This document shows positions 2,825 to 61,823 of a stretch of DNA of 64,000 nucleotides, piece by piece. A model generated the notes under the pieces. It ran no database searches. It saw nothing but the letters and a program-made list of their open reading frames with translations, and had not been told where the DNA came from. The stretch comes from an uncultured delta proteobacterium (GTDB taxonomy: Bacteria; Desulfobacterota; Binatia; UBA9968): positions 1 to 64,000 of the forward strand of contig CAWJBB010000055.1 in the NCBI GenBank assembly GCA_963840855.1, read 5' to 3'. A program made the position numbers and the translations under genes. How positions within the stretch are numbered: position 1 is the first letter of the stretch; the number at the start of each line of letters is the position of its first letter.

Positions 2825-4796
2825 AGTTACCACTCGCTTGATGCGCTTTTCCGAGTCTACGATGGGGATTACCTGCAAATTGTGCCTGGTAAAAAGGTCT
2901 CTCAGTGCTTTTTGATCCAAATGCTCCGGCGCTGTGATCACGTCGGTGCGCATAACGTCCTGGACGGTTTTGTCGCCGGGAGTTATCAACAAATCCCTGA
3001 AAGTGACTGTCCCCAGCAGTTGCTCTTCAGAATTGGTAACGTAGGCGTAATAAAGAGTTTGACCCCGATCACGCGCATCTCTGCGTAGAAAACTTATAGC
3101 CTCGTCTACGCTCATATCAGGTCGCAAACGGACGTAGCGCGGATTTACTAGCCCTCGAGAATTTTCCTCGGCATAATCCATAAGCCCTTTGACTTCCCTG
3201 CGGGTCTTGTCATCGAGCAACGATAAAAGTCCAGCGCGTTCTTGTTCGGGGGCTTCCTGGATGACGTCCAGTGCTTCGTCAGGGGCGAGGAGCCGGATCC
3301 ACAATCTCCGTTCTCCGATCGGCAGAACTAGAATCAACTGCGCCTTATCCCTGGCACTCAGGTGCAGAAAAAAATTCTCCGCGTCATCCTGCTGGAGCAA
3401 CAAAAAGCCGTCGGCTCGCTCCCGCACAGAGAGGACAGGCCAGGCCTCGTACAGGTCGGCCAGCGCCAAGCTCTTCTCAGTCGCCTTGTCAACACCACTC
3501 TCCAAGTACATTTCCCCGGCGATGTCGTCGTACGCGAACAGCTCGGCATGGCGTCCCCAACTGATTGCGATATCTAGCTGCTTTTCGGCCTTGTCACCAA
3601 AATCAGCTTGCAGCTTGTCGTGAAAATAATCCCAAGCGACCCGCCGGTTGTCGTCCTGTTGGAGAGTTTCGTAGATCCAGGCAATGATCGGCAAGCGCAG
3701 GACCCGCCCCGCGATGATTGCTTTGCGGCCCAGAATGGTGGCGTCAGCGTAGGCGCGCCCAAGCGGCGTGAGTAACAGATCGCCCTCGTGAACCGTAATG
3801 AAACCCAGTCAGGTCCCCCGACTCCACAATGGGTAGGAGGTCATCGAGTTCGAGGACCAAATCACCGCTTATCCGGTAGAGGTCGACCCGTCCTCCCTCC
3901 TCTACGAGTTTCTCGAGCAAGCCGGCGAGGGCGCCGAGCTGTGCATTCGGTAACGCTCGGGTTACACCAGGCTGTCCAGGTTGAGTGCCAAGCGTTTCTT
4001 CTTTGGGCTTGGATTGACCGGCAACGGCTGCATACACTTTATCTACAAGGCCCTGGAAAGCGGTATCTTTGCGTTGCCGCGGCTGGCGAAGTCTGACGGG
4101 AATCTCCGTTACGATGTGACCAGGGTCTTTGCCCATGATCACGATGCGATCGGCCATCAACACGGCTTCCTCAATATTATGCGTAACCATCAGGATAGCC
4201 TTTGTAGGGATTTTCTTCTTGAGCCATAGTTCCATCAGCTCGCCCCGCAAAGCCTCGGCGGAAAGCACATCCAGGGCTGAAAATGGTTCGTCTAAACACA
4301 ACAATTCCGGTTCGACGGCCATGGCGCGGGCGAAACCAACTTTCTGTCGCATGCCGCCGGAAAGTTCGCGCGGGTAGGCTGACTCAAATCCATCCAAACC
4401 GACGATATCTATGAGTTTCAAGGCGCGTTCCCGGCGCTCAGCGGGCGCTACGCCGCGCGCTTTCAAGGCAATTTCCACGTTCTCTTGCACCGTCAGCCAG
4501 GGGTAAAGCGCAAATGTTTGAAAAACAATCGTCGTGTAGGGATTGACGCCTTTTAATGGCTGGCCATGATATGAAACCACGCCAGAAGTAGCGGCGTTTA
4601 ATCCCGCGATGATCCGCAGTAGCGTCGATTTCCCGCATCCGGATGGCCCGAGCAAGCAGACAAATTCACCCGGCTTGATATGGAGATCTATGTCTTTGAC
4701 GGCGAGAAATTCCTTGGTTTCCAGCCGGTAGGCTTTGGTGACACTTTGAAGGTCCAACAAATCGTCGGCGTCGTGGAGTGTTGTTGCAGTAATCAT
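2771..4796 (-). CDS. NitT/TauT-like ABC ATPase with AAA-associated C domain fused to MgtE N-domain + CBS pair (1-nt frameshift ~3809)
   Basis: [24 protein letters not shown]; removing one A gives [22 protein letters not shown]...[13 protein letters not shown]; then [16 protein letters not shown]...[15 protein letters not shown]...[22 protein letters not shown] (MgtE-like). Confidence 0.8.
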
Positions 4797-4815: not shown

Positions 4816-6543
4816 TCATTCCATGCGGTAACGTTCTTCAGCCAATCTATAGAGACGACGCCAGAATGTTCGGTTAATAAAAACAACCGTGATGACCAAG
4901 GCCAATGTCGCTGCCAGCAAGAGCGCATAATCGCCGGTGCCGGTTGCCTGCGCAATCAGCGCGCCGACTCCACTCGTGGCGTGGGTTTGGCCGCCGAATT
5001 CGACATGTTCCGCCACAATGCTGGCATTCCAGGCGCCGCCGCTGGCTGTGATGGCTCCGGTGATGATGTATGGAAAGAGCGCGGGCAGGATCAAAGTCCG
5101 CCAGCGGTCGAGTGATGAAAGGCGGAGCAGATCCGTGGTGTAGAGTAGGTCTTGGGGAATGGCCGCCGCTCCGGCAATGACGTTGAACAGGAGATACCAC
5201 TGCGTTCCCATCAGCATAAGGAGCACAGCGGCGATGTTTAAACCGCCCGGCGACTGCAACAGCGCCAGCAACACCACGGGAAAAAGCGCCGTAGCCGGAA
5301 TAGATGCAACAACTTGCACGATTGGCTGAAGAAGTCCGGCGAGACGCCGGTTGGTTCCGATAAACACGCCGACCGGAATGGTCCAGATCAAGGTTATTGC
5401 CAGTGCAACGCTCACCCGGAGGAAAGTGGCGACGATCCCTTTTCCCAATTCCGCCCATGCCGAACCGGGGAGGGTAACCAACAGGGTTGCTGCTCGATAC
5501 CCTCCGTATAAAGCCAGCAAGCAAGAAAACACTTAGGATTCCCATCGCCAAGCGAGAATGTCCCGCTTCGGCGAACGGTTCAGGTGAAGTAATGAATCCG
5601 CTCGTGCGCCGTTGAAACCCTCTGTCTACCCATTCACTAAAGGGTCGCCATATGTAGGTGCCAAATTGCTCTATGAGCCAAGCGCGTGAAATCAGATCAA
5701 GAAACCACGACCTCGGCGGTTCATCGCCTTCGACCATGTCCACTTTGAATCGATCGGTCCATGCAATAAGAGGGCGCCAGACGAATTGGTCGAGCAAAAC
5801 GATCACCAAGACCAGGGTGATCACGCCCAGAAGAACAGCGTGCAGATTCCCCTCGTTAGCGGCGGTTTGTAAATACGAGCCGAGTCCCGGCAAGCGAAAA
5901 TCACGACTCCCGACGTTGAAAATTTCAGCGGCCATAAGGAAAAACCAACCCCCCGACCAACTCATCATGCTGTTCCATAGCAATCCGATGGCGGCGAAAG
6001 GGAGTTCAACTGCTTTGAATCGTAACCAGGGATCGAAGCGAAACACGGCGGCGGCTTCACGCATTTCGCTCGGAATCGTGGTCATGGATTGATAAAAACT
6101 AAAGGTCATATTCCAGGCTTGAGATGTGAAAATAAGGACGATAGCCGCAAGTTCGGCCGCAAATACTTGGGGCAGGACGGCACTAAAGCTAAGCAGGACC
6201 ACCGGCAAGAAAGAGAGAATGGGCACACTTTGTAGCACGTCCAGCACGGGCATGAGCACCGTTCGCGCAGTGCGGTTGCGCGCGGCCGCGTAACCATAGA
6301 ATAAGCTGAACAGCATGGACAGAAAATATGCAGCCGCCATCCGTCCGACGGAGAGCAGAGCATACCAAGGCAACGCAAGAGGCGAGAGAGATATATCCGG
6401 CCCTGCGATAACTGCAGGAACCCGGATGGCTAGACGTATGCCCGCGTAAAGTATGGTGGCGATGCCCAATACTCAGGATCGCATCGCCAAGAGTGAACGT
6501 CAGGGCGTTCAGGAAGAGCCGGACTAAAACGGAATGGCCGCAT
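4816..6543 (-). CDS. ABC transporter permease with two fused BPD_transp_1 domains (frameshifts ~5530, ~6470, ~6500)
   Basis: LDVLQSVPILSFLP, FTSQAWNMTFSFYQS, WNSMMSWSGGWFFL, ASIPATALFP, GTQWYLLFNVIAG, ASGGAWNASIVAE; ORFs 4874..6469 and 4816..5532 join across an indel. Confidence 0.82.
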
Positions 6544-15269: not shown

Positions 15270-15281
15270 CAGAAGACGCCG

Positions 15282-15359
15282 GTTCAATGTTCAAAGTTCA
15301 AGGTTCAACGTTCGGATTCGGAATCACAACCTTTGAACGTTGAACCTTGAACTTTGAAC
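15282..15359. repeat. Heptamer (GTTCAAN)n inverted-repeat element
   Basis: Perfect 25-bp stem 15289-15313 / 15335-15359 built of 7-nt units. Confidence 0.9.
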
Positions 15360-15377
15360 TATACCGGGTGAGCAATC

Positions 15378-20249: not shown

Positions 20250-20365
20250 GTTCAACGTCCAAAGTTCAAGGTTCAACGCCTGCCCTGAGCTTGTCGAACG
20301 GGTTCAAGGTTGGGAGATTGAACCCGAAATCCGAAACATTGAACTTTGAACATTGAACCTTGAAC
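20250..20365. repeat. Heptamer (GTTCAAN)n inverted-repeat element with nested CCTGAGCTTGTCGAA REP-like unit
   Basis: GTTCAAC GTCCAAA GTTCAAG GTTCAAC ... ATTGAAC TTTGAAC ATTGAAC CTTGAAC. Confidence 0.85.
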
Positions 20366-20404
20366 TCTAAGCCGGCACCAAAGTGCCGGCACTGGAGAGA
20401 GCGA

Positions 20405-21653: not shown

Positions 21654-23225
21654 ATGAAGGCCAACGACGCGGTTACACAGACACTTCCGTCGCCTATAAC
21701 ACTCGACCATTACAACGCGGCGGAAGATTTGTTAGAGCGCAATATCGCTGCCAGGCCCAACAAGACCGCCTATATAGACGAGCGTGGCAGCTATAGCTTT
21801 GCTGAGCTCGCCGAGCGTGTGAATCGCTCCGCTAATGCTCTCACCGGATTGGGGTTAGCACAGGAGGCCCGCGTCATGGTTTGTCTCCTCGACACCATCG
21901 ACTTTCCTGCGGTGTTTCTCGGCGCCGTCAAAGCCGGCCTGGTGCCGATCGCGGTCAACACCTTGCTCACCGCTGGCGATTTCGACTTCATGCTGCGCGA
22001 CAGCCGCGCCCAGGCGCTGATCGTGTCCGAAGCGCTGCTGCCGGTCTTCACACCGATCCTCGAGCGGCGGCCATTTCTTAAACATGTCGTCATATCAGGC
22101 GAAAAAGCGTCGGCTTATCCGTTATTGGAAAATCTGACGGCGCAAGCGGCAAGCGAGTTTGCCGCGGCGCCGACCCGTCCGGACGACGCCTGCTTCTGGT
22201 TGTATTCCTCGGGCTCCACCGGCACGCCTAAAGGCGTCGTTCATGTACAGACGAGCATGATCCGCACCGCCGAACTTTACGCTCAGCCGGTACTAGGAAT
22301 TCAAGAAAGCGATATCGTCTTCTCGGCGGCAAAACTGTTCTTCGCCTACGGCTTGGGCAACGCGCTCAGCTTTCCGCTCTCCATTGGCGCCACCACGGTT
22401 CTCTTCAGTGACCGTCCGACACCGGCGGCGGTTTGCCGTATTCTGCGCGAATACCGGCCGACGATCTTCTACGGTGTGCCGACGCTTTACAGCGCTTTGT
22501 TAGCCAGCTCTGAATTGCCCAAACGCGATGAGCTCAATCTGCGCCGTTGTACCTCTGCCGGCGAAGCGTTGCCACCGGACGTTGGACGTCGATGGCTCGA
22601 ACATACCGGCGTGGATATTCTTGACGGGCTTGGCTCCACCGAATTGCTGCATATCTTTCTTTCCAACAGACCCGATGACAATCGCTACGGGACCTCCGGG
22701 AAGCCCGTGCCGGGTTATGAAATCCGTCTGGTCGGCGAAGACGGCAGCCCCGTCGCCAAAGGCGAGATCGGCGAGCTCCAAGTCGCCGGTCCGACCAGCG
22801 CGGCTTTTTACTGGAACAATCGCGACAAGAGCCGCAACACTTTTTTGGGCCCATGGACCAAGAGCGGCGACAAGTACACCGAAAGCGACGACGGCTACTT
22901 CACTTATTGCGGCCGCGGCGACGATATGCTCAAAGTGAGCGGCATTTGGGTTTCGCCGTTCGAAGTCGAGTCGGCGCTGGCGTCGCACGAAGCGGTGCTC
23001 GAAGCCGCCGTGGTAGGTCAAGCCGATGAAAACGGTCTCATCAAACCGAAGGCTTTCGTCGTGCTCCGTCCCAATTCGCCGCAGACGCCGCAGCTCGCCG
23101 CCGCGCTCCAACAACATGTAAAGGGCCACCTTGCGCCCTACAAGTATCCGCGCTGGATCGAATTCGTCGCCGAGTTGCCCAAGACCGCCACCGGCAAGAT
23201 TCAACGTTTTAAACTGCGCATTTGA
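21654..23225 (+). CDS. Benzoate-CoA ligase family protein
   Basis: WLYSSGSTGTPKG, AAKLFFAYGLGN, LDGLGSTELLHIF, KVSGIWVSP, PKTATGKIQR. Confidence 0.93.
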   Translation: MKANDAVTQTLPSPITLDHYNAAEDLLERNIAARPNKTAYIDERGSYSFAELAERVNRSANALTGLGLAQEARVMVCLLDTIDFPAVFLGAVKAGLVPIAVNTLLTAGDFDFMLRDSRAQALIVSEALLPVFTPILERRPFLKHVVISGEKASAYPLLENLTAQAASEFAAAPTRPDDACFWLYSSGSTGTPKGVVHVQTSMIRTAELYAQPVLGIQESDIVFSAAKLFFAYGLGNALSFPLSIGATTVLFSDRPTPAAVCRILREYRPTIFYGVPTLYSALLASSELPKRDELNLRRCTSAGEALPPDVGRRWLEHTGVDILDGLGSTELLHIFLSNRPDDNRYGTSGKPVPGYEIRLVGEDGSPVAKGEIGELQVAGPTSAAFYWNNRDKSRNTFLGPWTKSGDKYTESDDGYFTYCGRGDDMLKVSGIWVSPFEVESALASHEAVLEAAVVGQADENGLIKPKAFVVLRPNSPQTPQLAAALQQHVKGHLAPYKYPRWIEFVAELPKTATGKIQRFKLRI

Positions 23226-23248
23226 AGCGCACTACTTATTTATATGGA

Positions 23249-23356
23249 GTTCAAAAGTAAGCAGCCCTAAAGGCGCTGACCGAGGAGTTCAAAGTTTGGG
23301 ATCGTGCTTACTCGGTTCATAAACGATCGAAATACGTTGAACATTGAACTTTGAAC
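23249..23356. repeat. Degenerate heptamer (GTTCAAN) repeat element
   Basis: GTTCAAA ... GTTCAAAGTTT ... GTTGAAC ATTGAAC TTTGAAC. Confidence 0.65.
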
Positions 23357-23384
23357 CAGAGTATTTCCATTGATGGAGGAAACC

Positions 23385-24575
23385 ATGAAATGCGCCCCTG
23401 ACGTTAACCGGCGGCGGTTTTTGACTCAATCCTGCCTGCTCGCCGCTAGCGTTCTGTTGCCTGAGTCCAGCGCCTTCGCACAAGCGCAAAGGCTGCGCGT
23501 CGGCCTGATGCTGCCGTACACCGGCACCTATGCCCAACTCGGCACCGCCATCACCAACGGCTTCAAGCTCGTGGTGAGCGAGCGCGGCGGTAAACTCGGC
23601 GGCCGCGAACTCGAATACTTTACCGTGGACGATGAATCCGACCCGGCAAAAGCGCCGGAGAATACCAACAAGCTGGTGCAGCGCGATAAAGTCCATGTGC
23701 TGGTCGGCTCAGTGCACAGCGGCGTGCAGATGGGCATGGTCAAGATCGCCAAAGAAACCAATACGCTTATGATCATTCCCAACGCGGGGCTGGACGCCGC
23801 CACCGGCGCCCTGTGCGCGCCGAATATTTTCCGCTCGTCTTTTTCCAACTGGCAGCCTTCCTATCCGATGGGCAAAGTGCTTGCCGACCGCGGCATCCGC
23901 AACGTTGTGTCCCTCGCCTGGAAGTATGGCGCCGGCGAAGAAGCAGTGGCTGGTTTCACCGAGGGATTTATCAAGGCCGGCGGTAAAACCGTGCGCGGCT
24001 TGTGGATACCGTTTCCGAACGTGGAATTCCAGGCGCTGCTTACCGAGATCGCTTCGATCAAGCCCGACGCCGTGTTCGTCTTTTTCGCCGGCGGCGGCGC
24101 TGCGAAGTTTATCAAGGATTACGCCGCGGCAGGGTTGCGCAAAACCATTCCACTGTTCGGCTCGGGATTTCTTACCGACGGCGTGCTCGATGCGGTCGAT
24201 AACGCCGCTGAAGGGCTCGAAACCACGCTGCATTACGCCGACGGGCTCGACAACAAACGGAATAAGGAGTTCCGCGCCGCATACATGAAAGCTTACAAGA
24301 TCGAGCCTGACGTCTACGCCGTGCAGGGCTACGACGCGGCGCTGCTCCTTGCCACTGGCCTCGACGCCGTCAAAGGCGACGTCGGCAGGCGCAACGAAAT
24401 GATCGGCGCTATGGAGAAAGCCAGGGTCGATAGTCCGCGCGGCACCTGGACGATGTCGAAAGCACACAACCCCATTCAGGATATCTATTTGCGCAAAGTC
24501 GTCGGCCGCGAAAACAAGTTCGTCGGCATCGCCCACAAGGCCCTCGCCGATCCGGCGCGGGGATGTAAAATGTAA
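23385..24575 (+). CDS. Liv-type ABC substrate-binding protein (aromatic acid/benzoate), Tat signal
   Basis: NRRRFL; GLMLPYTGTYA, VDDESDP, VHSGV, NIFRSSFSNWQ. Confidence 0.9.
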   Translation: MKCAPDVNRRRFLTQSCLLAASVLLPESSAFAQAQRLRVGLMLPYTGTYAQLGTAITNGFKLVVSERGGKLGGRELEYFTVDDESDPAKAPENTNKLVQRDKVHVLVGSVHSGVQMGMVKIAKETNTLMIIPNAGLDAATGALCAPNIFRSSFSNWQPSYPMGKVLADRGIRNVVSLAWKYGAGEEAVAGFTEGFIKAGGKTVRGLWIPFPNVEFQALLTEIASIKPDAVFVFFAGGGAAKFIKDYAAAGLRKTIPLFGSGFLTDGVLDAVDNAAEGLETTLHYADGLDNKRNKEFRAAYMKAYKIEPDVYAVQGYDAALLLATGLDAVKGDVGRRNEMIGAMEKARVDSPRGTWTMSKAHNPIQDIYLRKVVGRENKFVGIAHKALADPARGCKM

Positions 24576-24585
24576 GACAGGTCGT

Positions 24586-25040
24586 TCACCACGAAGGCGC
24601 GAAGAACACGAAGGAAAAGCGGTAGGGTGTGAAATTCGACGAATTGTCGAATCGAGTTATTGGCTGCGCAATCGAAGTTCACCGGCAGCTCGGGCCGGGA
24701 TTGTTAGAATCGGCCTACGAGCAGTGCCTGAGCTATGAACTCAATCAATCTCACCTACCGTTTCAAACGCAATGCGCGTTACCGGTGAAATACAAACAAA
24801 TTGAGTTGGACTGCGCTTATCGTATCGACATGCTTGTCGATAATCAGCTGATTGTAGAGCTAAAAAGCGTGGATCAATTGTTGAAGATTCATGAGGCCCA
24901 AGTTTTAACGTATATGAAGTTGGCGAAAGTAAATGTCGGACTCCTGATTAACTTTAACGTCGATCTTCTCAGGAAAGGCATCAAGAGATTAGTTCTTTGA
25001 TTCGAAATAACCCTTCGTGTCCTTCGTGCCTTCGTGGTGA
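24586..25040. mobile_element. Putative GxxExxY element bounded by 29-bp inverted repeats
   Basis: TCACCACGAAGGCGCGAAGAACACGAAGG (24586-24614) vs reverse complement of 25012-25040, 27/29 identical; lies between SBP and permease genes. Confidence 0.65.
24629..25000 (+). CDS. GxxExxY protein (PD-(D/E)XK nuclease-like)
   Basis: LGPGLLESAYE, YRIDMLVD, IVELKSV, HEAQVLTY, GLLINFN. Confidence 0.93.
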   Translation: MKFDELSNRVIGCAIEVHRQLGPGLLESAYEQCLSYELNQSHLPFQTQCALPVKYKQIELDCAYRIDMLVDNQLIVELKSVDQLLKIHEAQVLTYMKLAKVNVGLLINFNVDLLRKGIKRLVL

Positions 25041-25050
25041 GGCATTCATC

Positions 25051-25908
25051 ATGGTGCTTCTTATACAACTTTTGAACGCCGTACAGTATGGTTTATTGTT
25101 ATTTCTGCTGGCGAGCGGCTTGACCCTGATCTTCGGCATCATGGGCGTGATCAATCTCGCCCACGGCAGTTTCTATATGGTCGGCGCCTACCTCGCCTAC
25201 TGGCTCGCCAGGCACACCGGCAGCCTCTGGCTGGCGATTCCATTTGCAGTCGTCATCGCCTTCGGCATAGGTCTCCTGTTGGAGACGGCGATCTTCAGCC
25301 GCTTATACAAGCGCGACCATCTCTATCAAGTGTTGCTCACCTTCGGCCTGATCCTGGTCTTCGAAGAACTGCGTAGCATTCTATTCGGCGATGAAGTCCA
25401 TGGCGTGGCGATTCCGGCGCTGCTCACCTCTTCGATCCCACTCACTGACACCCTGTCGTATCCGGTTTACCGGCTCTTCGTCACCGCGGTGTGCCTGGCG
25501 ATCGCGGCCCTGCTGTATTTCGTGATCCACAAAACCCGCGTTGGCATGATGATCCGGGCCGGCAACAGCAACCGCGAGATGGCCGCTTCGCTCGGCGTGA
25601 ATATTCCCCTGCTGTTCGCCTTGGTCTTCGCATTCGGCATGGCCCTCGCCGCCTTCGCCGGCGCCGTCGCCGCGCCGATCTCGTCGGTATTTCCCGGCAT
25701 GGGAAACCAAATCTTGATCATCTGCTTCGTTGTCGTCGTGATCGGTGGCATAGGCTCGATCAACGGCGCCATGATCGCCTCCCTCGCCATCGGCCTCGCC
25801 GACACTCTCGGCAAGGTAGTCGCGGCGGAATACTCCAGCGTCGCGGTTTACCTGGTCATGGCGGCAATTCTCTTGTGGCGCCCACAAGGCATCGCCAACA
25901 AGGCGTAA
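25051..25908 (+). CDS. Branched-chain/aromatic ABC permease (LivH-like)
   Basis: GLTLIFGIMGVINLAHG, GMMIRAG, VVVVIGGIGS. Confidence 0.92.
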   Translation: MVLLIQLLNAVQYGLLLFLLASGLTLIFGIMGVINLAHGSFYMVGAYLAYWLARHTGSLWLAIPFAVVIAFGIGLLLETAIFSRLYKRDHLYQVLLTFGLILVFEELRSILFGDEVHGVAIPALLTSSIPLTDTLSYPVYRLFVTAVCLAIAALLYFVIHKTRVGMMIRAGNSNREMAASLGVNIPLLFALVFAFGMALAAFAGAVAAPISSVFPGMGNQILIICFVVVVIGGIGSINGAMIASLAIGLADTLGKVVAAEYSSVAVYLVMAAILLWRPQGIANKA

Positions 25909-32523: not shown

Positions 32524-33340
32524 TCATTTTCCCGCTCTTGTCGCGCTCCATTTATTGCCGCCGGCGGTGCCCTCCATCGAGTTGCCGCTAACGCGCCCGC
32601 TGTACTGCACGTTGCCGGCCGTGAATGTGATCTGATCGCCGTTCAATTTCCCACTGACCTGCGTGGCGGCGTTGCCGTTCTTGAGCGTGCCGGAGATCAT
32701 CTGAAAAGTCTGTTTGAGCGTCAGCTCGCCTTGTGGCAAGTTTCCACGATCCCTCCACTTTCGCCGGGACGATCCAGAGATGCGCCGTGCACCAATTGTT
32801 GCAGCCTTCTACCGTCGCCGTTTCGTCGGGCTTCCACTCCTCCATGTCAAAGGAGTTCGAAACTATCCTCGTGCCGGGCTTGAGATCGAGAATCTTCGGC
32901 CGTAGCTTGACATTGATGCTCGGCAGCAAGAACATCGTAATGACCTGGGCCTGCGAGAAGTCGCTTTCGAAAAGATCGGCTTTCACGAAACTCGCTTTAT
33001 CGCTCACGCCTTCTTTGGCGGCGCTTCGCTTCGACAGTTCCACCATGTCCGGGTTGTATTCTATGCCAAGAGCTTTGGAGCCCCGCTTCGCTGCCGTGAT
33101 GACCGTGCGCCCGTCACCGGAACCCAGATCGATGACGTAATCCTTCGGCGTCACCTTGGCCATGTCGAGCATCTTGTCCACCAGGGCCTGGGGCGTCGGC
33201 ACCCAAACGACGTCTTTGCCAGCTTGCCCGACTTCGGGCTCGTATTCTTTAGCCGGCTGCGCCTGAGCAATACCGCTCGCAAGCGCGACCGACAACGATA
33301 GCGCCAGTGCAAATTGTCTGTACAAATTCAATCTAGTCAC
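32524..33340 (-). CDS. Class I SAM-dependent methyltransferase with signal peptide, copy 2 (frameshift ~32740)
   Basis: DVVWVPTP, IDLGSGDGR, GIEYN; the 32524..32739 frame completes the C-terminus seen in copy 1; GTG at 33340 with RBS GAGGAG. Confidence 0.85.
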
Positions 33341-33432
33341 AAATCTCCTCCCGCTTTGAATTGATATATTGCTGCTTCTAGTTTTCACTTGGGCCGACTC
33401 AGTCGCAAGGGGTCAGTTCAACCACTTGATTG

Positions 33433-34245
33433 TTAATTTGCTCCGCGCGACGCGCTCCAGTTCCCGCCGGACTTGAGCGTTCCTTCGATAGAGTTGCCAT
33501 TGACCCGGCCGGTGTATTGCGCCTCGCCGGCAGAAAAGCTGATCTCATCGCCGTTCAGCTTACCCGTGACCGGCGTGGCCACGCTACCGCTCTTGAGCGT
33601 GCCGGAGATCATCTGAAAAGTCTGTTTGAGCGTCAGCTCGCCTTGTGAAGTTGTCCAGACGCCGCCGACTTTTGCCGGGACGATCCAAAGATGCGCCGTG
33701 CACCAGGAGCTGCAACCGGCAAGGTTGGCCGTTTCATCGGGCTTCCATTCGGCCATATCGAAGGTATTCGACACGATGCGCGTGCCCGGCTTGAGGTCGA
33801 GGATCTTAGGCCGCAGCTTCAAGTTGATACTGGAGAGTAGAAACATCGTGATGACCTGGGCCTGTGAGAAATCGCTTTCGAATAGATCGGCTTTCACGAA
33901 ACTCGCTTTATCGCTCACGCCTTCTTTGGCGGCGGTTCGTTTCGATAGTTCCACCATGTCCGGATTGTATTCGATGCCAAGAGCTTTGGAGCCCCGTTTC
34001 GCCGCCGTGATGACCGTGCGCCCGTCACCGGAACCCAGATCGATGACATAATCTTTCGGCGTCACCTTGGCCATGTCGAGCATCTTGTCCACCAGGGCCT
34101 GGGGCGTCGGCACCCATATGACATCTTTCCCATCCTGGCCGACTTGCGGTTCATATCCTTTTGCCGACTGCGCGGGTGCACCCACCGGAAGCGCCGCAAT
34201 GCAGATTGCCAATAGCACGATTCGCGAAAATCTCGCCGCTATCAT
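33433..34245 (-). CDS. Class I SAM-dependent methyltransferase with signal peptide, copy 1
   Basis: DVIWVPTP, IDLGSGDGR, LKPGTRIVS; C-terminal beta-rich domain. Confidence 0.88.
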   Translation of the reverse strand: MIAARFSRIVLLAICIAALPVGAPAQSAKGYEPQVGQDGKDVIWVPTPQALVDKMLDMAKVTPKDYVIDLGSGDGRTVITAAKRGSKALGIEYNPDMVELSKRTAAKEGVSDKASFVKADLFESDFSQAQVITMFLLSSINLKLRPKILDLKPGTRIVSNTFDMAEWKPDETANLAGCSSWCTAHLWIVPAKVGGVWTTSQGELTLKQTFQMISGTLKSGSVATPVTGKLNGDEISFSAGEAQYTGRVNGNSIEGTLKSGGNWSASRGAN

Positions 34246-42732: not shown

Positions 42733-42880
42733 CTCCCGCCAAGGCGCAAAGCACGCCAAGTTCGGAGGGAAGAGATGAATTATCTTGGAGAATTTTTCAC
42801 CGTTATTTTCCGACCTTCGCGACCTTTGCGCCTTTGCGCGAGATATTCCGGCTTTTGGTTGCGGCTATGTCGCGCTGTGC
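42733..42880. repeat. CGCAAAGGCGCAAAG-type inverted repeat pair overlapping the SBP start
   Basis: CTCCCGCCAAGGCGCAAAGCACGCCAAG (42733-60) vs CTTCGCGACCTTTGCGCCTTTGCGCGAG (42815-42). Confidence 0.75.
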
Positions 42881-43821
42881 TCTTTGTGGTTAATTTTATT
42901 CCTTCGTGTCTTTCCGCGCAGGAGCCGCTGCGGGCCGGAACCATCTTCAGCGCCACTCAGGCGCCGCTTTGGGCGGCTAGAGAAGGCCGCTACTTCGAGA
43001 AGTACGGAATAAAGAACCTGGAAGTGATCCAGTTTTCCGGCGGCCAACCGGTGACCCGAGCACTGATCGGCGGGGACATTCAAATCAGCACCACCGGCGG
43101 CGCCGCGGTGGTCAACGCCCGGCTGAAGGGCGCCGATACAATAATCATCGCCAGAACCGTCGGCGTATTTCCGTATACGTTCTACGTCAGCAAGGAAATC
43201 CGCGACCCGTCGGAGCTAAAAGGGAAGAAGCTCGCGGTGAACACGGTGGGCGGCTCAGGCTACGTCGCCATGCAGTATGCTCTTAGAAAACTCGGCTTGG
43301 ACCCCGACAAAGACGTCGCGATGTTGCAGGTGGGTGACTTCGGCACCCGCCTCGCGTCGCTGGCGGCCGGAACGGTTCAAGGAACTTTGCTCCTTCCGCC
43401 TTTTACGTTGCGCGCGAAAGAACTTGGTCTGAAGCCCCTTTACGATATGGTGGGCAGCGGCATCCAATACCCGATCAATCAAATCACCACGCGGCAATCC
43501 TTCATCAAGTCGCAGCGCGAAACAGTGAAGAATTTCATGAGAGGTTTTGTCGCGGGCCTTGCGAAATTTCGCACGGACCGGGAATTTGGCTCGCGGGTGT
43601 TGGCCAAGAATCTGCGCGAAAGCGACCCGAAAATTCTTCAAGAGACCTATGAGTTCTGGTTGAAAGTTTTTCCGCGAGTCCCCAACCCAGGCCCCGAAGA
43701 CGCCACGGTTTTCTTGGAGCTCATGCAAGTCAAAGAGCAGCGCGACTGGAAAGACTTCGTCGACACGAGTGTCATGGACGAACTGGAGCGCGAAGGATTT
43801 CTGACCGCCGTCTACAAGTGA
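42775..43821 (+). CDS. SsuA/NMT1-like ABC substrate-binding protein
   Basis: PLWAAREGRYFEKYG, LKGKKLAV, LGLDPDKDV, DFVDTS; start uncertain. Confidence 0.85.
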   Translation: MNYLGEFFTVIFRPSRPLRLCARYSGFWLRLCRAVLFVVNFIPSCLSAQEPLRAGTIFSATQAPLWAAREGRYFEKYGIKNLEVIQFSGGQPVTRALIGGDIQISTTGGAAVVNARLKGADTIIIARTVGVFPYTFYVSKEIRDPSELKGKKLAVNTVGGSGYVAMQYALRKLGLDPDKDVAMLQVGDFGTRLASLAAGTVQGTLLLPPFTLRAKELGLKPLYDMVGSGIQYPINQITTRQSFIKSQRETVKNFMRGFVAGLAKFRTDREFGSRVLAKNLRESDPKILQETYEFWLKVFPRVPNPGPEDATVFLELMQVKEQRDWKDFVDTSVMDELEREGFLTAVYK

Positions 43822-46040: not shown

Positions 46041-46250
46041 CCTCACGCCAAGCCTGTCCAGAGCAAGTCGAAGGGACGCCAAGAATGCCAAGTGACGGGC
46101 CAAAACCCGTTATCCCGAGCGAATGCGAGGGATCTAAGAAAGATTTCTCCCGACGTTTATCCTGAGCTTGCCGAAGGGGTCGATGACAAAGCGTTCCTTT
46201 GCGCCTTTGCGCGAGATATTTCGGCTTTAGTTGCGGCTCGCCGCGCTAGA
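46041..46250. repeat. Nested composite of three repeat families
   Basis: CACGCCAAG.../CTTTGCGCCTTTGCGCGAG arms enclosing GTTATCCCGAGCGAATGCGAGGGATCT and AGATTTCTC..[CCTGAGCTTGCCGAAGG]..GATGACA. Confidence 0.7.
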
Positions 46251-46314
46251 TCTCTATGGTAAATACTCCTTTACAGTAAACCTGGAAGAACCAAAGTTTT
46301 TAAGGAGCAATCAC

Positions 46315-47680: not shown

Positions 47681-49216
47681 AGCTCTGGAGAGATCTAAGA
47701 CGCAGAAGGTGGCGTCTTGGTTGCGCTGCAAGCCCGTGGAGCGCAATCAACTGTTGTTGCGGGCGGTCGATGTGGAGAAGCTGGTGGGCGAAGAGCATGC
47801 GGTGCGAGCGATCTGGGAGTTGGTGGGTCAGTTGGATCTCACCCGGTACTACAGCGAGATTGGCGCCTTGGAAGGGCAAGCCGGCCGGCCGGTGTGGGAT
47901 CCTCGGGTACTGATCAGTTTGTGGATTTATGCCTATAAGGACGGGGTCAGTTCGGCGCGTGAGATTGCGCGTTTGTGTGAGTTTGATCCGGCCTATCAGT
48001 GGCTGACGGGGATGGAGGTGGTCAATTATCACACGCTGGCGGATTTCCGCATTGAATACGAGCAGGCGCTCAACGGCTTGTTTGTCGAAGTGTTGGGAGT
48101 GCTCAGCGACCAGGGACTGGTCACGCTTAAGCGGGTCATGCACGATGGGACCAAGATCAAGGCTTGCGCATCGGAGAAGAGTTTTCGGCGCAAACAAACC
48201 CTGGAGGCTCATCTTAAAGAGGCTGAGGAGCAGGTTAAAGCGATGGGAGATCCGCTCTCGGAAAAACTCAGTCAGCGGGTTTTTCGGGCGCGCCAGCGAG
48301 CGTTGCGCGAGAAGCAGGAGCGGCTTAAAGAGGCCCTTCGGGAGTTGGCGCAACTTAAGGCTACGCAGTGCGAGACAGCGCAGGATGAGCCCACAGAACA
48401 GGCAAAGAAAAAAGCAGCACGTGCCAGTAGCACCGACCCGCAGGCGCGCGTGATGTTGGGGGCCAAAGGGGCTTATGGGCCAGGCTACAACATCCAGATT
48501 TCCACCGACGCTCAGGCTAAGATCATCGTAGCAATGGGCGTGATGCAGTCCTCTAGCGACGCGGGGGAATTGGCAGGAGCCGTAGAACGAATCGAAGCGA
48601 ATCTTGGGCAAAAGCTCGGGCTGAAGGTGGTGGACGCAGCTTACTCGACGCACCAGGCCATTGAGGCGATGGCAGACAAAGAGATTGATTTGATTGGACC
48701 GCTGAGAGAGGGAAAAAAGATCCGTGGAATGATCCATTGAAACGTCGCGGTATTAGTCCAGAGTTTTATCCCGAGGCCTTTGGCTATGATCCGAGTACTG
48801 ACCATTACCGGTGTCCGGCAGAAAAGCTGCTTAGTTTTGAAACCGAGGAACGAAAGCCCGGTTGGGTGAGTCGTCGCTACCGGGCGCGACTGGCGGATTG
48901 TCGCAGCTGTCCTTTTCAGGCGCAATGTTGTCCCAAGACCAAAAAGGGACGTTCCTTGCTGCGTATGAAGAAGACGGCTCCACTGATGGCCTTTGAAGCG
49001 AAGATGCAGACCGAACAGGCGCAAAAGATCTATAAGCAGCGAGCCGGGGTCGCGGAGTTTCCCAATGCCTGGATTAAAGAGAAGTTTGGTTTGCGCCAGT
49101 TTCGCTTGCGCGGTGTGGTTAAGGTGGGACTGGAATCTCTTTGGGCCTGTCTCACCTACAATATTTGCCAGTGGGTGCGGCTTTGCTGGAAACCCCGGCG
49201 GTTGGCTCAAGCTTAG
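47667..49216 (+). CDS. IS1182 family transposase (-1 frameshift at A6G 48713-48719)
   Basis: GRPVWDP, YAYKDGVSSAR, HTLADFR, HDGTKIKA, STDPQAR, DAAY, YKQRAGVAEFP. Confidence 0.88.
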
Positions 49217-49471: not shown

Positions 49472-51459
49472 ATGCTACTCGACTTGTCATTCGACGACGA
49501 GAGCCCTTCGCCAACGGCCATGAATTTCCCATCACCGGCGCCTACGAGAAACTGGTCGGCAAAATCTATGGCGAGGTCGATCCGAAGAATAGGCTCAACA
49601 AGATGATCGTGAATCTCGACAAGGCGCCGCGCAACCGCCGCGGCAGAGTCGAGTATTCGAGCGACTTCTGCATCTTGAAGCCGTTGGACATGGCGCGGGG
49701 AAGCGGCAAGATATTTTTTGACGCCCCCAACCGCGGCGGCAAGCGCATTGTCGCGTTCTTCAACGACGCGCCGCAGAGCAACGACCCGGCGACACTGGAA
49801 GACGCCGGCAACGGTTTTCTGATGCGCCGAGGCTACGCCATTGTCTGGTGCGGCTGGCAGGGCGATCTTATGCCGGTCAAAAACTGGCTGGTACTGAATG
49901 TTCCCGTTGCGACCAATAATGGCAAAGAGATCATCCGTCAAACCCGCACTGAAATCGTCGTCGATGAAAAAGGCGTCAAGTCCCAGCCGCTCAGCGGCGA
50001 TGACCGCGTCAAGAGCTACGAAGCGGCGTCACGGGACAAATTAATCGCTTCGCTCACCGTTCGCGAGAAATCTTACGGACCAAGAATTCCCATACCGCCA
50101 TCGGAATGGGAATTTGCCAGTTGTGTTAAAGATTCACGCTCCGGCAAAGAAACGATCAAATCCAGCGGCAAGCATCTTTACCTTCGCGCCGGCTTCAAGC
50201 CGGGGCATATCTATGAATTCGTTTATGCCGCGAAGAATCCCTTGGTCCTAGGTTTGGGATTCGCTGCTGTGCGTGATCTCGTTTCGTTCTTGCGTTACCA
50301 AAGGAAAGACTCGGCTGGCCGCCTCAATCCCCTCGCAACGGATAGAAAAACTTCTGGCATCCGATACGCGTATGGTTGGGGCCGCTCGCAGAGCGGCCGA
50401 TTCCTCCGCGACCTCCTTTATCACGGCTTCAATGGAGACGAGGCGCATAGAAAAGTTTTGGACGCGATCGCGCCGCATGTGGCGGGGGGCGGGCGCTTGT
50501 TTTTGAATTATGAGTTCGCCCGCCCCGTCACTTCCTCGCAGCAGCACACAAACCAACTTGACCCCGAACTTTTCCCCCACGCTTACAACGTTTTGAAAGA
50601 CGCGCATACCGGACGACGCGACGGCATTCTCAAGCGTCCAAGAACCGACCCGGTGGTTTTCCACACCCAAACGTCGACTGAGTACTGGCAGAAGCGGGCT
50701 TGCCTGGCGCATACCGATGGCAAAGGTCGCGACATCACGCTCCCGGAAAATGTCCGGCTCTACGTCATCGCCAGCGCCCAGCACAACAGTCCCTTCGGTT
50801 CCGAAGCCGTCAAAGAAGACACCCAGCAGCGAATCAATCCGTTGCCCGCCGGCGACGCGCTGCGCGCTCTGATGGTCGCCATGGATCTGTGGGTTACTCA
50901 AGGAATTTCGCCGCCGCCGAGCCAGTATCCGAGAGTGAGTGACGGGACTCTGGTGCGTCCGGATCGAAGAAGCACCGGATTCCCAAATGTTCCTGGCGTT
51001 CGCTACTTCGGGTTTCACAACCGTCAACTCTTTCTCGATTACGGTCCGAACATAAGTCGCGGGCGGCTAGGCGTTCATCCTCCACGGCCAAGCGCCAACG
51101 GCGCCTACGCGATTCTCGTTCCGAAGGTCGACAAAGACGGCAACGACGTCGCAGGCATTCGTTTGCCGGCGATTCAAGTCCCCGTCGGCACCTATACAGG
51201 GTGGAATTTGCGCCCCCGCGGCCTCGCTGAAGATGAGTTGTCAGGCTTGCTCGGATCGTATATACGGTTTGCCAAAACACGATCGCAGCGCAAACAACTC
51301 GGCGACCCGCGCGGATCGATCGAAGAGCGCTACAAAGATCGGGCGGACTACGTGCGGCAAGTCAGCCGCGCAGCAAGATTTCTCGTGGAGCAACGATATC
51401 TGCTTCCAGACGACGCAGAGCGCATTATCAAGGAAGCGAGTAAGCATCGATTGAGGTAG
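49472..51459 (+). CDS. Alpha/beta-hydrolase domain protein (1-nt indel just after ATG)
   Basis: In-frame REPFANG...GAYEKL upstream of ORF 49603; GWQGD, GRSQSGRFLR, PKVDKDGN, SIEERY. Confidence 0.82.
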
Positions 51460-51484
51460 TCAGGTTGTGAATGATTAGAAGGCG

Positions 51485-51564
51485 AGATTCCTCACTCCGT
51501 TCGGGATGACATCGCACGGAGAATAACAACACGAATATGGCATTCCGAGCAAAGCGAGGAATCT
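51485..51564. repeat. REP-like pair (AGATTCCTC..GGATGACA / GCATTCCGAGC..GAGGAATCT)
   Basis: Two inverted palindromic units; same family at ~35944-36146 and ~46110-46190. Confidence 0.75.
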
Positions 51565-51610
51565 CGACTTTCGCACAAAAATTAGCGCTGATTTGTAATC
51601 GGAGGTCGCC

Positions 51611-53640
51611 ATGTTTTCTGTCATAACGATTTTGATTGCATTGTTTTGCCTCCCAGCAACTTCCTCCTCCGAAATCACCAAGATCGTCATCGACAAGCGC
51701 GAGCCGTTCGCGAACGGCCATGAATTCGGAGTTACCGGCGCCTACGAGAAACTCATCGGCAAGGCCTACGGCGAGGTCAATCCCGACACGAAGCACAACA
51801 AAGGCATTGTGAATCTCAAAAGAGCGCCGCGCAACGAGCGCGGCCGCGCTGAGTATTCGATGGACGTTTTTATGCTCAAGCCCATGGACATGAAGCGCGG
51901 CAACCAGACGATCTTTTACGATGTCGTGAACCGTGGCAACCAGGCTCTGCGCGTGAACTACGGCGCCGAACGAAGCAACAACCCATCGACGCTCGCCCAT
52001 GCCGGCGACGGCTTCATGATGCGGCAAGGCTACACGCTGGTCTGGAGCGGCTGGCAGGGCGATGTTCTACCTGGCGGAGGCAGATTAACGACAAGCTTTC
52101 CAGTCGCCAAAAATCCGGAGGGAAGCCCGATCCGTCGCGTGATCACAACAGAGTTTGTTTTCGATAAACCGACCTTCAGCGTCCCGGTCAGTTTCGACCG
52201 TGGATCTTTGGATGTCCAACCCTACCCCCTCGTGAAGGAAAGCATGTCCAAAGCTAAACTCCATCGCCGCGCCGGCCCCCATGAGACGCGGGAACTGATT
52301 CCAACCGACCAATGGTCTTTTGATCGCTGTCCGGACGGCAAAACGAAAACGCCGAGCAACGCCGACGTATGCCTGCCCGCAGGCTTCTCGGCGAACTACA
52401 TTTACGAACTCACCTACGAAGCAAGCGATCCGATGGTGATGGGAATGGGCTTCGCTGCTACACGCGATCTCGTTTCCTATCTGCGTTACGATACCTCCGA
52501 CGGAAACCCGCTGGCGGACAGCAAGGAGAAAAAGTCGCCGCGCTGGGCCATCGGTTTCGGCTCATCACAGAGTGGGCGATTTCTAAAAGATCTCATCTAT
52601 CAAGGGTTCAACCAGGATGAGACAGGCAGAATAGTTTTCGATGGCGCGATCCCGCACATCTCCGCGACACGCCGCACTTTTACCAACTATGAATTTGCCA
52701 TGCCGGGACGTTCAGTAAATACGATTGAGGGCCACTATTATCCGGGTAACGAATTCCCGTTCACTTATGAGACGACTCCTGACCCTTTAAGCAAGAGGAC
52801 GGATGGGTTTCTTGCCCGCTGCCGCCAAGACAAAGCCTGTCCAAAGATTATGCATTGGGATTCCGGCACCGAGGCTTGGCAGGGTCGAAACTCGCTCGTC
52901 ATTACCGACCCGCTAGCGAAGAAAGACGCACCGATTCCTGAAAACGTTCGTCTTTACTATTTTGCCAGCACGCAGCATGGCCCGGCGGCGAAACCGTCGC
53001 GCGGCATCTGCCAACAACTCAGCAACCCCCTCTCGTACCAAGAGACGCAACGCGCCCTGATCGTCGCGCTTCAGTCGTGGGTAACGCTGAGGCGTGTTAC
53101 CACCGCCAAGCCGATTTCCGCGAATTTCTGACGGCACCCTCGTGCCGCCACTGCCGCAGAGCGCACAGGGACTTCCCGGTCATCCCTGGCGTCCGCTACA
53201 AGGGAAAACCAAACGATCTTTCACTTAATGATGGGACCGTTCAGCCGCCCACTCATGTGAAGGCCAAAGAGTATTCGCTGCTCGTCCCCAAAGTGGATAA
53301 AGATGGAAACGACATCGCCGGCATCCGCGCCGTTGGACTGCAGGTTCCGCTCGCCACTCACACCGGTTGGAATCTGCGGGCGAGAGGCTTTATGGAAGAC
53401 GAGCTCTGCTATCTCAGCGGTACCTATGTTCCCTTCGCCAAAACCAAGGAAGATCGGGAAAAGAACGGCGACCCGCGTTTATCAATCGAAGAACGCTACA
53501 AAGATCACGCCGACTATGTGCAGCAGGTCAGCCGCGCGGCGAGAACGCTGATGGATGAAAGATTTCTGCTGCCGGAAGATGCCGAGCGAATCATCTCAGA
53601 AGCGGCGAAGGCGAAAATATTCGCCGAGAAAACACCGTAG
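51611..53640 (+). CDS. Exported alpha/beta-hydrolase domain protein, paralog of 49472..51459 (frameshifts ~53090-53170)
   Basis: Signal peptide; REPFANG, GWQGD, GSSQSGRFLK; 53077..53640 supplies PKVDKDGN...SIEERY. Confidence 0.8.
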
Positions 53641-53815: not shown

Positions 53816-53870
53816 CTCCTGGCCGACAATCAGAAGAGCGTTATTCCCGGCCAGGGGAATCGAGTTCTTT

Positions 53871-53899
53871 CTTCGTGAACTTCGTGTCCTTCGTGGTGA
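53871..53899. repeat. Solo copy of the GxxExxY flanking repeat
   Basis: CTTCGTGAACTTCGTGTCCTTCGTGGTGA resembles 25012-25040. Confidence 0.75.
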
Positions 53900-56145: not shown

Positions 56146-56315
56146 ACACGAGCTTAAAATCCAGCCGCAAAGCCATTTTTAATCATCCAGACAAGCAAGC
56201 GGGAAAAAACGGCCTCCGTATAAGCCCTATAAACGACGATCTCCCCTCGGTTAATACCTTGGGTACCCCCAAAATCAGCCTCTTCTCCCGGAGGTCTCAC
56301 CACCATGATGCTTGA
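56142..56315 (+). CDS. Small ORF (57 aa) between istA and istB
   Basis: RBS GGAGGAGG, ATGA overlap with the istA stop; ends inside the istB start. Confidence 0.4.
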   Translation: MNTSLKSSRKAIFNHPDKQAGKNGLRISPINDDLPSVNTLGTPKISLFSRRSHHHDA

Positions 56316-61690: not shown

Positions 61691-61755
61691 ATCGCAGCGC
61701 CCGTCGGCGCAGCCAAAAGCCGTTATACCTCCCGCAAAGGCGCGAAGGCGCAAAG
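61691..61755. repeat. CGCAAAGGCGC-type repeat with CAGCGC..GCAGCCAAAAGCCG tail
   Basis: Inverted relative of the composite units at 42815-42880 and 46196-46250. Confidence 0.65.
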
Positions 61756-61823
61756 TTAGGGGGCGTTAAAGGGGACGCAAACCTTTCTTGACGCCATGGA
61801 GTCGATCGATGTAGCGTTGCGCG

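Follow-up and report, generated by a model that had tools for sequence, protein, structure and literature searches.

GxxExxY nuclease genes framed by inverted heptamer arrays as candidate small mobile elements

The element in the ABC operon

The window analysed here, a stretch of 64,000 nucleotides from an uncultured Binatia bacterium (contig CAWJBB010000055.1), carries a unit of 455 bp (24586–25040) whose only enclosed open reading frame (ORF) is a GxxExxY gene. The gene (24629..25000, + strand) starts with GTG and encodes 123 aa of the PF13366/TIGR04256 family. Upstream of it, the left arm (24586..24614; TCAC-CACGAAG-G-CGCGAAG-AA-CACGAAG-G) begins 10 nt past the stop codon of a Peripla_BP_6 binding-protein gene (24575). 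Downstream, the right arm (25012..25040), an inverted left arm with three CTTCGTG units plus GTGA, ends 10 nt ahead of the ATG of a BPD_transp_2 permease gene (25051). This placement, with 10 nt left on either side, agreed with the original prediction. The host site is the ~20-nt spacer between binding protein and permease of a branched-chain-type ATP-binding cassette (ABC) operon, and the element has the same orientation as the operon. The region is chromosomal, with recA, alaS and phoH close by. RecA of the window has 96% identity to proteins named Candidatus Binatia, which indicates a Binatia-like host.

The arms, 29 nt each, are 27/29 (93%) complementary and have 397 nt between them. Each consists of a terminal TTCAC-type tag and then three heptamers. 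In the left arm these are CACGAAG at 24590, CGCGAAG at 24598 and CACGAAG at 24607 (spacing 8 and 9), and in the right arm CTTCGTG at 25013, 25022 and 25030 (spacing 9 and 8). In an ungapped +1/−2 test the pair scored 23, compared with a maximum of 9 in 20 flank shuffles. The identity of the arms and the 8–9-nt spacing of CACGAAG units are as had been predicted. The two-unit pattern ACGAAGNNNNCGAAG occurred three times in the window against 0.07 expected, and three or more times in 0 of 100 shuffles. At the tip of the right arm, GGTGAGG lies at Shine-Dalgarno distance from the permease ATG. The G + C content was 0.40–0.44 within the unit and 0.58–0.62 outside. A promoter and terminator scan of 23200–25300 gave no more sites than were found in shuffled sequence, and none marks the element.

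The GxxExxY protein

By its profile matches, the 123-aa product is a full-length GxxExxY family member. It matched PF13366 (PDDEXK_3) with an E-value of 4e-45 and 153 bits (cut-off 22) over profile positions 2–117 of 117, and TIGR04256 (GxxExxY protein) with an E-value of 4e-46 and 156 bits (cut-off 35) over positions 1–116 of 116. The motifs recognized were G24-L-L-E27-S-A-Y30, D67, E77-L-K79 and Q91-V-L-T-Y95. An alignment of 44 sequences had 20 invariant columns, among them G24, E27, D67, E77, H88, Q91 and Y95, while Y30 and K79 were retained in at least 90% of the sequences. The set E...D...ExK...QxxxY is the signature of the RecB-type branch, whose members act on DNA ends and single strands.

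The predicted structure (predicted local distance difference test, pLDDT, 95.9) has a PD-(D/E)XK fold in minimal form. With Foldseek, the best matches were weak (E 4e-3 to 3e-2, TMq 0.4–0.54), to lambda exonuclease, Cas4 SSO0001 and the AddAB/AdnAB nuclease domains, with the archaeal Hjc also among the structural neighbours. PADLOC gave a partial Cas4 profile match (E 4e-4, residues 54–100) and nothing else for this protein. Fold and motifs identify it as a predicted minimal nuclease of the RecB/Cas4/lambda-exonuclease type, with the catalytic residues intact. Searching the sequences of solved structures yielded only chance-level sortase matches (E ~0.1). PHROGs had no family for the protein, tblastn of 50,697 phage records found no match, and among ESM Atlas look-alikes outside PF13366 there was no usable one.

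All nine tested family members of 263–334 aa (9/9) had two domains in a single chain. Many members of 260–330 aa with two GxxExxY domains were also seen among the proteins P0241–P0279 and P0361–P0374, and in P0243 the ExK motif is apparently gone from the second domain. A homodimer prediction with two copies of the window protein scored 0.00 and was used neither for nor against a dimer.

The family is very large. In a library clustered at 50% identity, a profile of the 44 members detected 33,358 representatives with E ≤ 0.001, and still 14,549 when the limit was set to E ≤ 1e-10. Within the protein collection, the nearest homologues had 74–93% identity and came from several phyla. A survey of the PD-(D/E)XK superfamily from 2012 enters the function of GxxExxY as unknown (PMC3424549), and the only other mentions found, in two papers, are incidental (PMC8934634, PMC12085832).

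Inverted arrays around other family members

The genome loci compared were the best 80 of 580 confirmed matches, with 55–77% identity, and thus represent one subfamily. They come from Planctomycetota, Pseudomonadota, Thermodesulfobacteriota, Verrucomicrobiota, Bacteroidota, Acidobacteriota, Chloroflexota and other phyla. With the window and second hits they gave 86 genes, 82 of them with full flanks; ORF calls in the loci were crude. Flanking inverted repeats (best ungapped inverted match between 120 nt upstream and 120 nt downstream, score ≥12) were found for 54 of the 82 GxxExxY genes, compared with 2 of 243 control ORFs taken from these loci. We also searched for arrays, defined as purine/pyrimidine strand-skewed runs of at least three units with 7–10-nt spacing within 200 nt of the gene. 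These lay near 73 of the 86 genes, and in 117/172 flank windows versus 135/2181 control windows.

By gene, the heptamer classes were CACGAAG (31), CACAGAG (14), CACGGAG (4), CGCAGAG (4) and CATGAAG (3), followed by the rarer CGCTGAG, CGCAAAG and CGCGAAG; 24 genes had no assignable class. Periodic arms were present in three of four paralogues with 30–48% identity (CACGAAT, CACGGAT and CGCCAAG types). Among eight relatives from the plasmid collection (35–56% identity), four (L081, L082, L083 and L084) had heptamer arrays, and L087 had a 16-nt inverted repeat with a single unit. Cultured carriers of the gene include Sphingomonas parapaucimobilis, Bacteroides finegoldii, Stieleria tagensis and Rhodopila globiformis.

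The commonest layout was a gene within a hairpin, the nearest arrays being forward, gene, reverse in 31 genes. In the compact form the last heptamer abuts the start codon and the first reverse heptamer lies 0–3 nt past the stop, giving a unit of ~430–440 bp. The element is thus roughly 435 bp in size, with ends of ~29 bp made of a TTCAC tag and three heptamers with one or two purines between them. Position by position, the tag 5′ of the first heptamer had T in 31, T in 39, C in 34, A in 52 and C in 52 of 55 ends. Nearest arrays pointing outward were seen in five genes, and whole hairpins flank the gene on both sides in five loci (L019, L024, L027, L032 and L036).

Two of the loci deserve separate mention. 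L003 has two identical elements (4347–4718 and 5001–5372) 654 bp apart, with near-identical flanks for more than 100 nt on either side, which is either a tandem duplication of a segment bigger than the element or an assembly artefact. The nearest Binatia relative among the loci, L028 (5001–5352, from a Candidatus Binatia metagenome-assembled genome (MAG), 77% identity), lies 3′ of a CoA-transferase gene, with no ABC operon. Its reading frame shifts near residue 20, so that it is either a frameshifted copy or a sequencing error.

Association of heptamer class and protein

A tree was built from 81 proteins, leaving out the four paralogues with less than 50% identity and the frameshifted L028. 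Heptamer class changed 18 times on this tree, compared with 24–31 times in 500 label shuffles, and for host phylum 30 changes were counted over the labelled rows. Three phyla were represented in the CATGAAG clade (support 97). In this comparison of sequences, heptamer class follows the protein clade and not the host phylum, showing that gene and ends are inherited or transferred as one. The original prediction, that co-varying inverted repeats would be general to GxxExxY genes, was borne out by this result and by the flanking repeats. Proteins of the GA and of the AG heptamer classes are told apart by five positions (F3, N8, position 47, Q32 and M96). As specificity determinants they were set aside, their distribution being indistinguishable from shared descent (2 independent pairs).

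Boundaries, contexts and empty sites

Blastn gave 84 pairs among 28 compact gene-in-hairpin elements, 41 of which cross named phyla. Homology extended past the left array by a median of 1 nt and past the right one by 3 nt (quartiles ≤4 nt). The exceptions were the syntenic pairs L032/L036 and L045/L078, from related hosts. Among 76 upstream neighbours no Pfam family occurred more than twice, showing, as predicted, that the gene is not fixed in one operon. These neighbours were unrelated housekeeping genes, including those for ATP synthase a, NuoL, aconitase, OTCase, CarA and KARI.

Sites with and without the element were found twice. In Sphingomonas parapaucimobilis, a family member of 42% identity sits between fabD and fabG, within 25-nt arms of the CGCGAAG class that are 92% complementary. 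Its left end lies 6–8 nt past the fabD stop, and the fabG ribosome-binding site follows its right end. S. paeninsulae has only a 33-nt spacer at this place, empty of the element, and the fabD–fabG spans of Methylobacterium, Rhizobium and Sinorhizobium are likewise ~460–490 bp shorter. The original prediction had called for an empty site between binding protein and permease in relatives; the empty site found is that of a sister element. The second case is L010 (4100–6500), a Planctomycetaceae MAG with a tandem array of eight 225-bp units, each with one CACGAAG hairpin. The gene fills the loop of one of them, so that a filled hairpin stands beside empty ones. Here the insertion adds 624 bp, with a ~190-nt leader, and on its flanks ~45 nt of the loop are duplicated.

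Insertion next to coding sequences may also have left marks in proteins. All six long proteins inspected (6/6) were a complete, unrelated enzyme with a C-terminal GxxExxY domain (HisK, HAD phosphatase, YjeF_N, AcrB, KdsB and Rpe), joined by linkers of periodic tripeptides (HEGHEEHEG, PQRSQRAQR, TAETQRTQR and similar). Judged from the proteins alone, the linkers fit a read-through of the left arm, and the fusions are probably read-through products or annotation artefacts. The N-terminal HEGHE(G/E)HEG, which is the translated left arm, occurred in 10 of 18 N-terminally extended metagenome proteins among the best 120 homologues. In L084 (1471–1899) the annotated Sphingomonas GxxExxY coding sequence runs through the right arm and stops 2 nt short of the fabG ATG. 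The same origin is probable for many “fusion” proteins of the family in databases.

With moderate confidence, we read the 455-bp unit as one copy of a discrete, insertion-type selfish element that is spread across phyla and whose nuclease would act on its own iteron ends. Its low G + C content is a separate matter. The difference from the neighbouring DNA was as the original prediction described it, but the argument built on it did not hold, because gene G + C was below flank G + C in 77 of 79 loci. A trait shared by the whole family gives no sign of recent arrival, and AT-richness as a mark of recent transfer was therefore rejected. The gene G + C tracks that of the host (r 0.88, slope 0.8).

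Conservation of the ends

Arm-to-arm identity was 97% at heptamer sites (538/553) and 52% at spacer sites (46/88). The spacers of 1–2 nt were almost always purines on the forward strand. Sense-strand mismatches were G:T in 17 and A:C in 19 cases, with no G:U bias. Conserved heptamers with unconserved spacers and no G:U bias favour sequence recognition over an RNA stem, and the maintained feature is the heptamer sequence and not a continuous stem, with no trace of selection on RNA pairing. At five assumed boundaries of 28 elements, the target-site duplication had length 0 in 18–23 of the 28 and mostly 1–2 nt in the rest. T-runs 3′ of the hairpin were absent on both strands.

These data bear on an RNA-level role, which we regard as improbable. 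In the operon transcript the arms would pair as a long stem round the ORF, much like an rRNA intervening sequence. Either RNase III or the nuclease of the element would then process the transcript, and the conservation would reflect transcript processing or stability. In the window, both arms close the predicted sense RNA 24580–25046 (minimum free energy −171 kcal/mol, z −6.4). The upstream ORF is co-oriented in 62/76 loci and the downstream ORF in 50/73 (crude ORF calls), both neighbours are co-oriented in 6/6 annotated loci, and the missing T-run keeps read-through. The purine-only spacers would point to a strand-specific constraint. However, complementarity is not kept in the spacers, G:U is not in excess over A:C, Rfam gave no match at gathering scores in the whole window, and the fold relatives of the protein are DNA nucleases. 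An RNA role would also leave unexplained the sharp DNA boundaries across phyla, the empty fabD–fabG site, the co-variation with the protein, and the solo arms and nesting described below.

Gene-less arms and hairpins

Arms of the CACGAAG class occur in the window once more, as a solo right-type arm (53870..53899) with three CTTCGTG units and GTGA. It has no partner arm and no gene remnant nearby (best blastx E 0.32). Other arms belong to a CGCNAAG class. A gene-less hairpin of CGCCAAG, CGCAAAG and CGCGAAG units (42733..42842) has 34-nt arms, 82% complementary, and a 42-nt loop (DNA fold −25.8 kcal/mol, z −4.6). A solo left-type arm reads CGCAAAG-G-CGCGAAG-G-CGCAAAG (61729..61756). A degenerate pair (46041..46216) has a clear right arm, scattered left units and small palindromes between them, and was not reported by the repeat finder at the thresholds used. 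The original prediction had placed these features at nearly the same positions (solo arms 53871–53899 and 61729–61755), and all of them were confirmed, the degenerate pair only in part. It had also described the CGC(A/C)AAG arms as of the same architecture; these arms form a heptamer class of their own, for which no cognate gene is seen. Beyond the right arms of the hairpin and the degenerate pair, the two loci have a ~45-nt repeat in common (42814–42885 and 46196–46260; GAGATATTYCGGCTTT.GTTGCGGCT...). This repeat family may extend beyond the hairpin, or else the hairpin inserted into a different repeat.

A third class, GTTCAAN, has four units at 8-nt spacing and is represented by hairpins and a solo arm at 15281–15360, 20250–20368 and 23334–23357. 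One perfect hairpin with 25-nt arms lies between cinA and thpR-recA, another hairpin between alaS and phoH, and the solo arm directly upstream of the binding-protein gene; all are intergenic. The window contains no cognate gene for the GTTCAAN or the CGCNAAG class.

Further features of the window were recorded beside these arrays. Other small palindromes at 51479–51570 and 46100–46180 (GAGATTCCTCACTCCGTTCGGGATGAC / ...GAGGAATCTC and TCCCGAGCGAATGCGAGGGATC) are unrelated to the heptamer arrays. A DDE_Tnp_1_6 transposase fragment (48737–49213) and an IstB (IS21 helper) gene (56305–57072) lie near the solo CACGAAG arm. Three Abhydrolase_10 ORFs (49603–53637) resemble one gene that was duplicated and split, and two adjacent paralogous methyltransferase genes (32591–34245, − strand) have an identical 23-nt block in common.

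Across the sampled loci, 141 array pairs were scored, 32 of them gene-less hairpins with loops under 150 nt (a count of combinations rather than of independent events). Where arrays lay over 600 nt away from the gene, they matched the class of their own locus in 7/12 (CACGAAG), 10/12 (CACAGAG) and 3/4 (CATGAAG) cases, so that repeats mostly go with the resident gene. No convincing gene remnants were found in the hairpin loops or around the solo arms. The best candidates were a 17-nt identity between the L025 loop and the L025 gene, and the L074 loop (blastx E 0.05–0.3). The view of gene-less pairs as non-autonomous derivatives is therefore supported for the shared ends, but not for derivation by deletion.

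In the plasmid collection, the 33-nt Sphingomonas arm occurred at 26 places in 14 of 72,556 records. Of these places, 17 were in seven replicons of the same strain, and only the one under the element's own gene coincided with an annotated feature. Tblastn with the window protein (E ≤ 1e-5) found one place in the collection, on a replicon of that strain. Two of the places hit by the arm are nested hairpins of S. parapaucimobilis (L090 400–780 and L091 390–660), with CGCGAAG arms outside and CGCGGAG arms inside. In L091 a third class, CGCAAAG/CGCAGAG, is nested within the CGCGGAG arms. The inner pairs start a few bases inside the outer left arm, and L090 lies directly 3′ of the hisF stop.

Candidates for other genes framed by such arms were flagged in three of the sampled loci and set aside. 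The L010 candidate falls in the hairpin array, the L011 sequence has no heptamer arrays of the GxxExxY-end type, and the HEAT-like ORF of L072 (9010–10142) was read as lying between two independent arms.

The chief rival to a self-contained element comes from these hairpins. They could themselves be the mobile or self-spreading entity, moved by another enzyme or by replication and repair errors. GxxExxY would then be a homing-type guest that cuts gene-less hairpins and is copied into their loops by repair, with the arms as homology. We hold this to be unlikely, yet less so than the RNA-level role, which is the weaker rival of the two. Gene-less hairpins are common, they form tandem arrays in L010 and L036, and the window has three hairpin classes and one gene. 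Hairpins nested in the loops of others mark loops as landing sites, and the L010 gene occupies one loop among eight otherwise empty units. The outward arrays and the loci with whole hairpins on either side of the gene fit a guest as well. Conversely, no other enzyme is linked to the hairpins, arms of 27–30 bp are short for homology-directed repair, and the L010 insertion, with its leader and duplication, is unlike the compact elements. In the latter the arms abut the start and stop codons (0–3 nt), and gene and arms cross phyla together. The loci were also picked by gene presence, so hairpins in gene-free genomes fall outside the sample. Nesting and L010 favour loop targeting, while the compact gene-plus-arms units crossing phyla favour a self-contained element.

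The same repeats could alternatively serve the host, as operon punctuation or by binding nucleoid or ribosome factors at Shine-Dalgarno-like units, with a domesticated and mostly vertically inherited nuclease that maintains or regulates them. The gene G + C fits that of the host, conservation of the protein is strong (20 invariant columns), related genomes have syntenic copies, and in Sphingomonas a single detectable gene stands against at least 15 arm sites without a gene. Rich in purines, the units resemble Shine-Dalgarno sequences (GAAGG, GGAG, AGAGG), and the right tip in the window may give the GGTGAGG before the permease ATG. Nevertheless, we give this explanation little credence. The protein tree cuts across phyla, the contexts are unrelated, insertions fuse to or truncate the ends of host genes, one Binatia copy is frameshifted, and we know of no host phenotype.

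Proposed mechanism and its weak points

If the unit is a self-contained element, the nuclease would recognize heptamer arrays of its own class. It would probably work as a dimer, as the natural two-domain chains suggest, and cut hairpin-forming DNA, probably in single-stranded form, where the TTCAC tag meets the heptamers or close by. Such a substrate is suggested by the kinship with Cas4 and RecB and by the precedents of the REP/RAYT and IS200/IS605 systems (see below). Host replication or repair would finish the copy or move, a step proposed because the element brings no enzyme that could join DNA. The gene-less hairpins and the solo arms that share its heptamers would be non-autonomous partners or landing sites. 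Expression would probably occur by read-through from the operon, as indicated by the co-orientation and the tight fit into operon spacers, and because neither promoters nor terminators were detected and no T-run follows the hairpin.

Several observations speak against the favoured reading. Movement must be rare, since gene G + C follows that of the host and related genomes share sites, as in the syntenic pairs L032/L036 and L045/L078. A metal-dependent nuclease is by itself unable to join DNA again, and the unit brings along no recombinase, ligase or second gene. Lacking a target-site duplication, the element is not an ordinary transposon with terminal inverted repeats (TIRs). The hairpin loops have no clear gene remnants, and the 64-kb window has just one gene and one solo arm of the CACGAAG class. 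The association on the tree is inseparable from joint descent of gene and arms, and it does not prove recognition of the arms because well-supported branches hold only two independent pairs. Within 200 nt, 13 of the 86 genes have no array. Two plasmid-collection relatives, L085 and L086, are framed by ~50-nt repeats that are direct and not inverted, and the distant member L088 has nothing clear in its flanks. Finally, the best 80 of 580 loci stand for one subfamily of 55–77% identity.

Comparison with known systems

In function, the element most resembles the repetitive extragenic palindromes (REPs) and their REP-associated tyrosine transposases (RAYTs). According to PMC3733652, a REP is an imperfect palindrome of 20–40 nt with a GTAG or CGTC tag; PMC3337134 and PMC3116915 also served for the comparison. 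Both have a small nuclease-type gene between short palindromic repeats and gene-less copies dispersed between the genes of the same genome. In both, the repeat class goes with the resident gene, target-site duplications are missing, and singlets, inverted doublets and clusters occur. A gene flanked by an inverted repeat that is also dispersed without a gene in the same genome was found here too, the window itself contributing only the arm at 53870–53899. The enzymes differ, RAYT being an HUH/Y1 protein with a covalent intermediate and GxxExxY a metal-dependent PD-(D/E)XK protein. Among the window ORFs there was no Y1_Tnp-type match, and PF13366 was the only Pfam family in the GxxExxY ORF. The ends differ as well, with a three-heptamer array and a TTCAC tag instead of a GTAG/CGTC-tagged stem of 20–40 nt. 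Moreover, the gene often lies inside the hairpin, and the family crosses phyla. The original prediction of a mobile or repeat-dispersing element analogous to RAYT/REP was partly supported, by anatomy, generality, boundaries and the empty site of the sister element, and was left without support in the derivation of the gene-less pairs.

The insertion sequences (IS) of the IS200/IS605 type are also very small, of similar size, with hairpin-forming ends and no target-site duplication, and they act on single-stranded DNA, by analogy the probable substrate here. They differ in having subterminal hairpins, no TIR, and TnpA HUH and/or TnpB, neither hairpin type nor enzyme being present here. Miniature inverted-repeat transposable elements and TIR (DDE) transposons with subterminal iterons share inverted ends of short binding-site-like units, gene-less derivatives and nesting, but the present element lacks a DDE transposase and a target-site duplication, and the gene-less loops contain no remnants of the gene. 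Free-standing homing endonuclease genes, including PD-(D/E)XK ones, have filled and empty alleles of one site and a nuclease that cuts the empty allele. The element resembles them as a lone small nuclease gene with filled and empty sites, a well-conserved protein and probably selfish behaviour. Unlike them, the GxxExxY gene has its own inverted ends and many unrelated intergenic sites, with no intron, intein or fixed target.

The fold and the motifs E, D, ExK and QxxxY are shared with Cas4, RecB and lambda exonuclease (Foldseek E ~4e-3, TM ~0.5). Cas4 proper has a four-cysteine iron-sulfur cluster. The window protein has only 123 aa, with no cysteine cluster seen in its C-terminal part, and was rejected as Cas4 proper on the partial profile match and the lack of cas genes among the window ORFs. 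Small ORFs for 23S rRNA intervening-sequence proteins (23S_rRNA_IVP), uncharacterised according to PMC11270868, are similarly enclosed in a long stem of inverted flanks. Here, instead, the flanks are protein-coding with no rRNA gene, and the protein family is another one. Type III toxin-antitoxin systems (ToxIN-like) have tandem repeats of ~36 nt and a terminator upstream of an endoribonuclease toxin. They were rejected because the repeats here are of 8–9 nt, on both sides and inverted, with no terminator between repeats and gene. The element is therefore not a member of the REP/RAYT, IS200/IS605, DDE/TIR or Cas4 systems, nor of the rRNA intervening sequences.

Implications

No paper in the open full text of PubMed Central and bioRxiv, supplements aside, was found to link the GxxExxY family to flanking repeats or to describe the heptamer hairpins. 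The protein family is known, and so is the general kind of system, in which a nuclease gene goes with scattered palindromes of its own type. The GxxExxY element would be a form of it that relies on another enzyme, and there is a fair chance that it represents a new mobile-element class. The strongest form of this proposal is possible, though we rather doubt it. GxxExxY elements would be a new class of autonomous mobile DNA, among the smallest known (~430–460 bp), in which a 123-aa nuclease reads three-heptamer arrays and moves gene-bearing and gene-less hairpins from one intergenic spacer to another and into the loops of other hairpins, through cutting and repair in a way that no described transposase family uses.

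The link to self-matching heptamer ends gives the very large GxxExxY/PF13366 family, so far without assigned function, a concrete role to test. The gene-plus-arms arrangement accounts for periodic intergenic repeats, for the HEGHEGHEG-type heads and tails of metagenome proteins, and for the C-terminal fusions. If the nuclease reads the heptamers, the many classes would offer paired protein and site sets on DNA recognition by a fold of 120 aa, and a second, enzymatically unrelated case of the partnership between host and repeats known from REP/RAYT. If a new mobile class is indeed at hand, the family would be a natural library of compact nucleases with differing sequence specificities.

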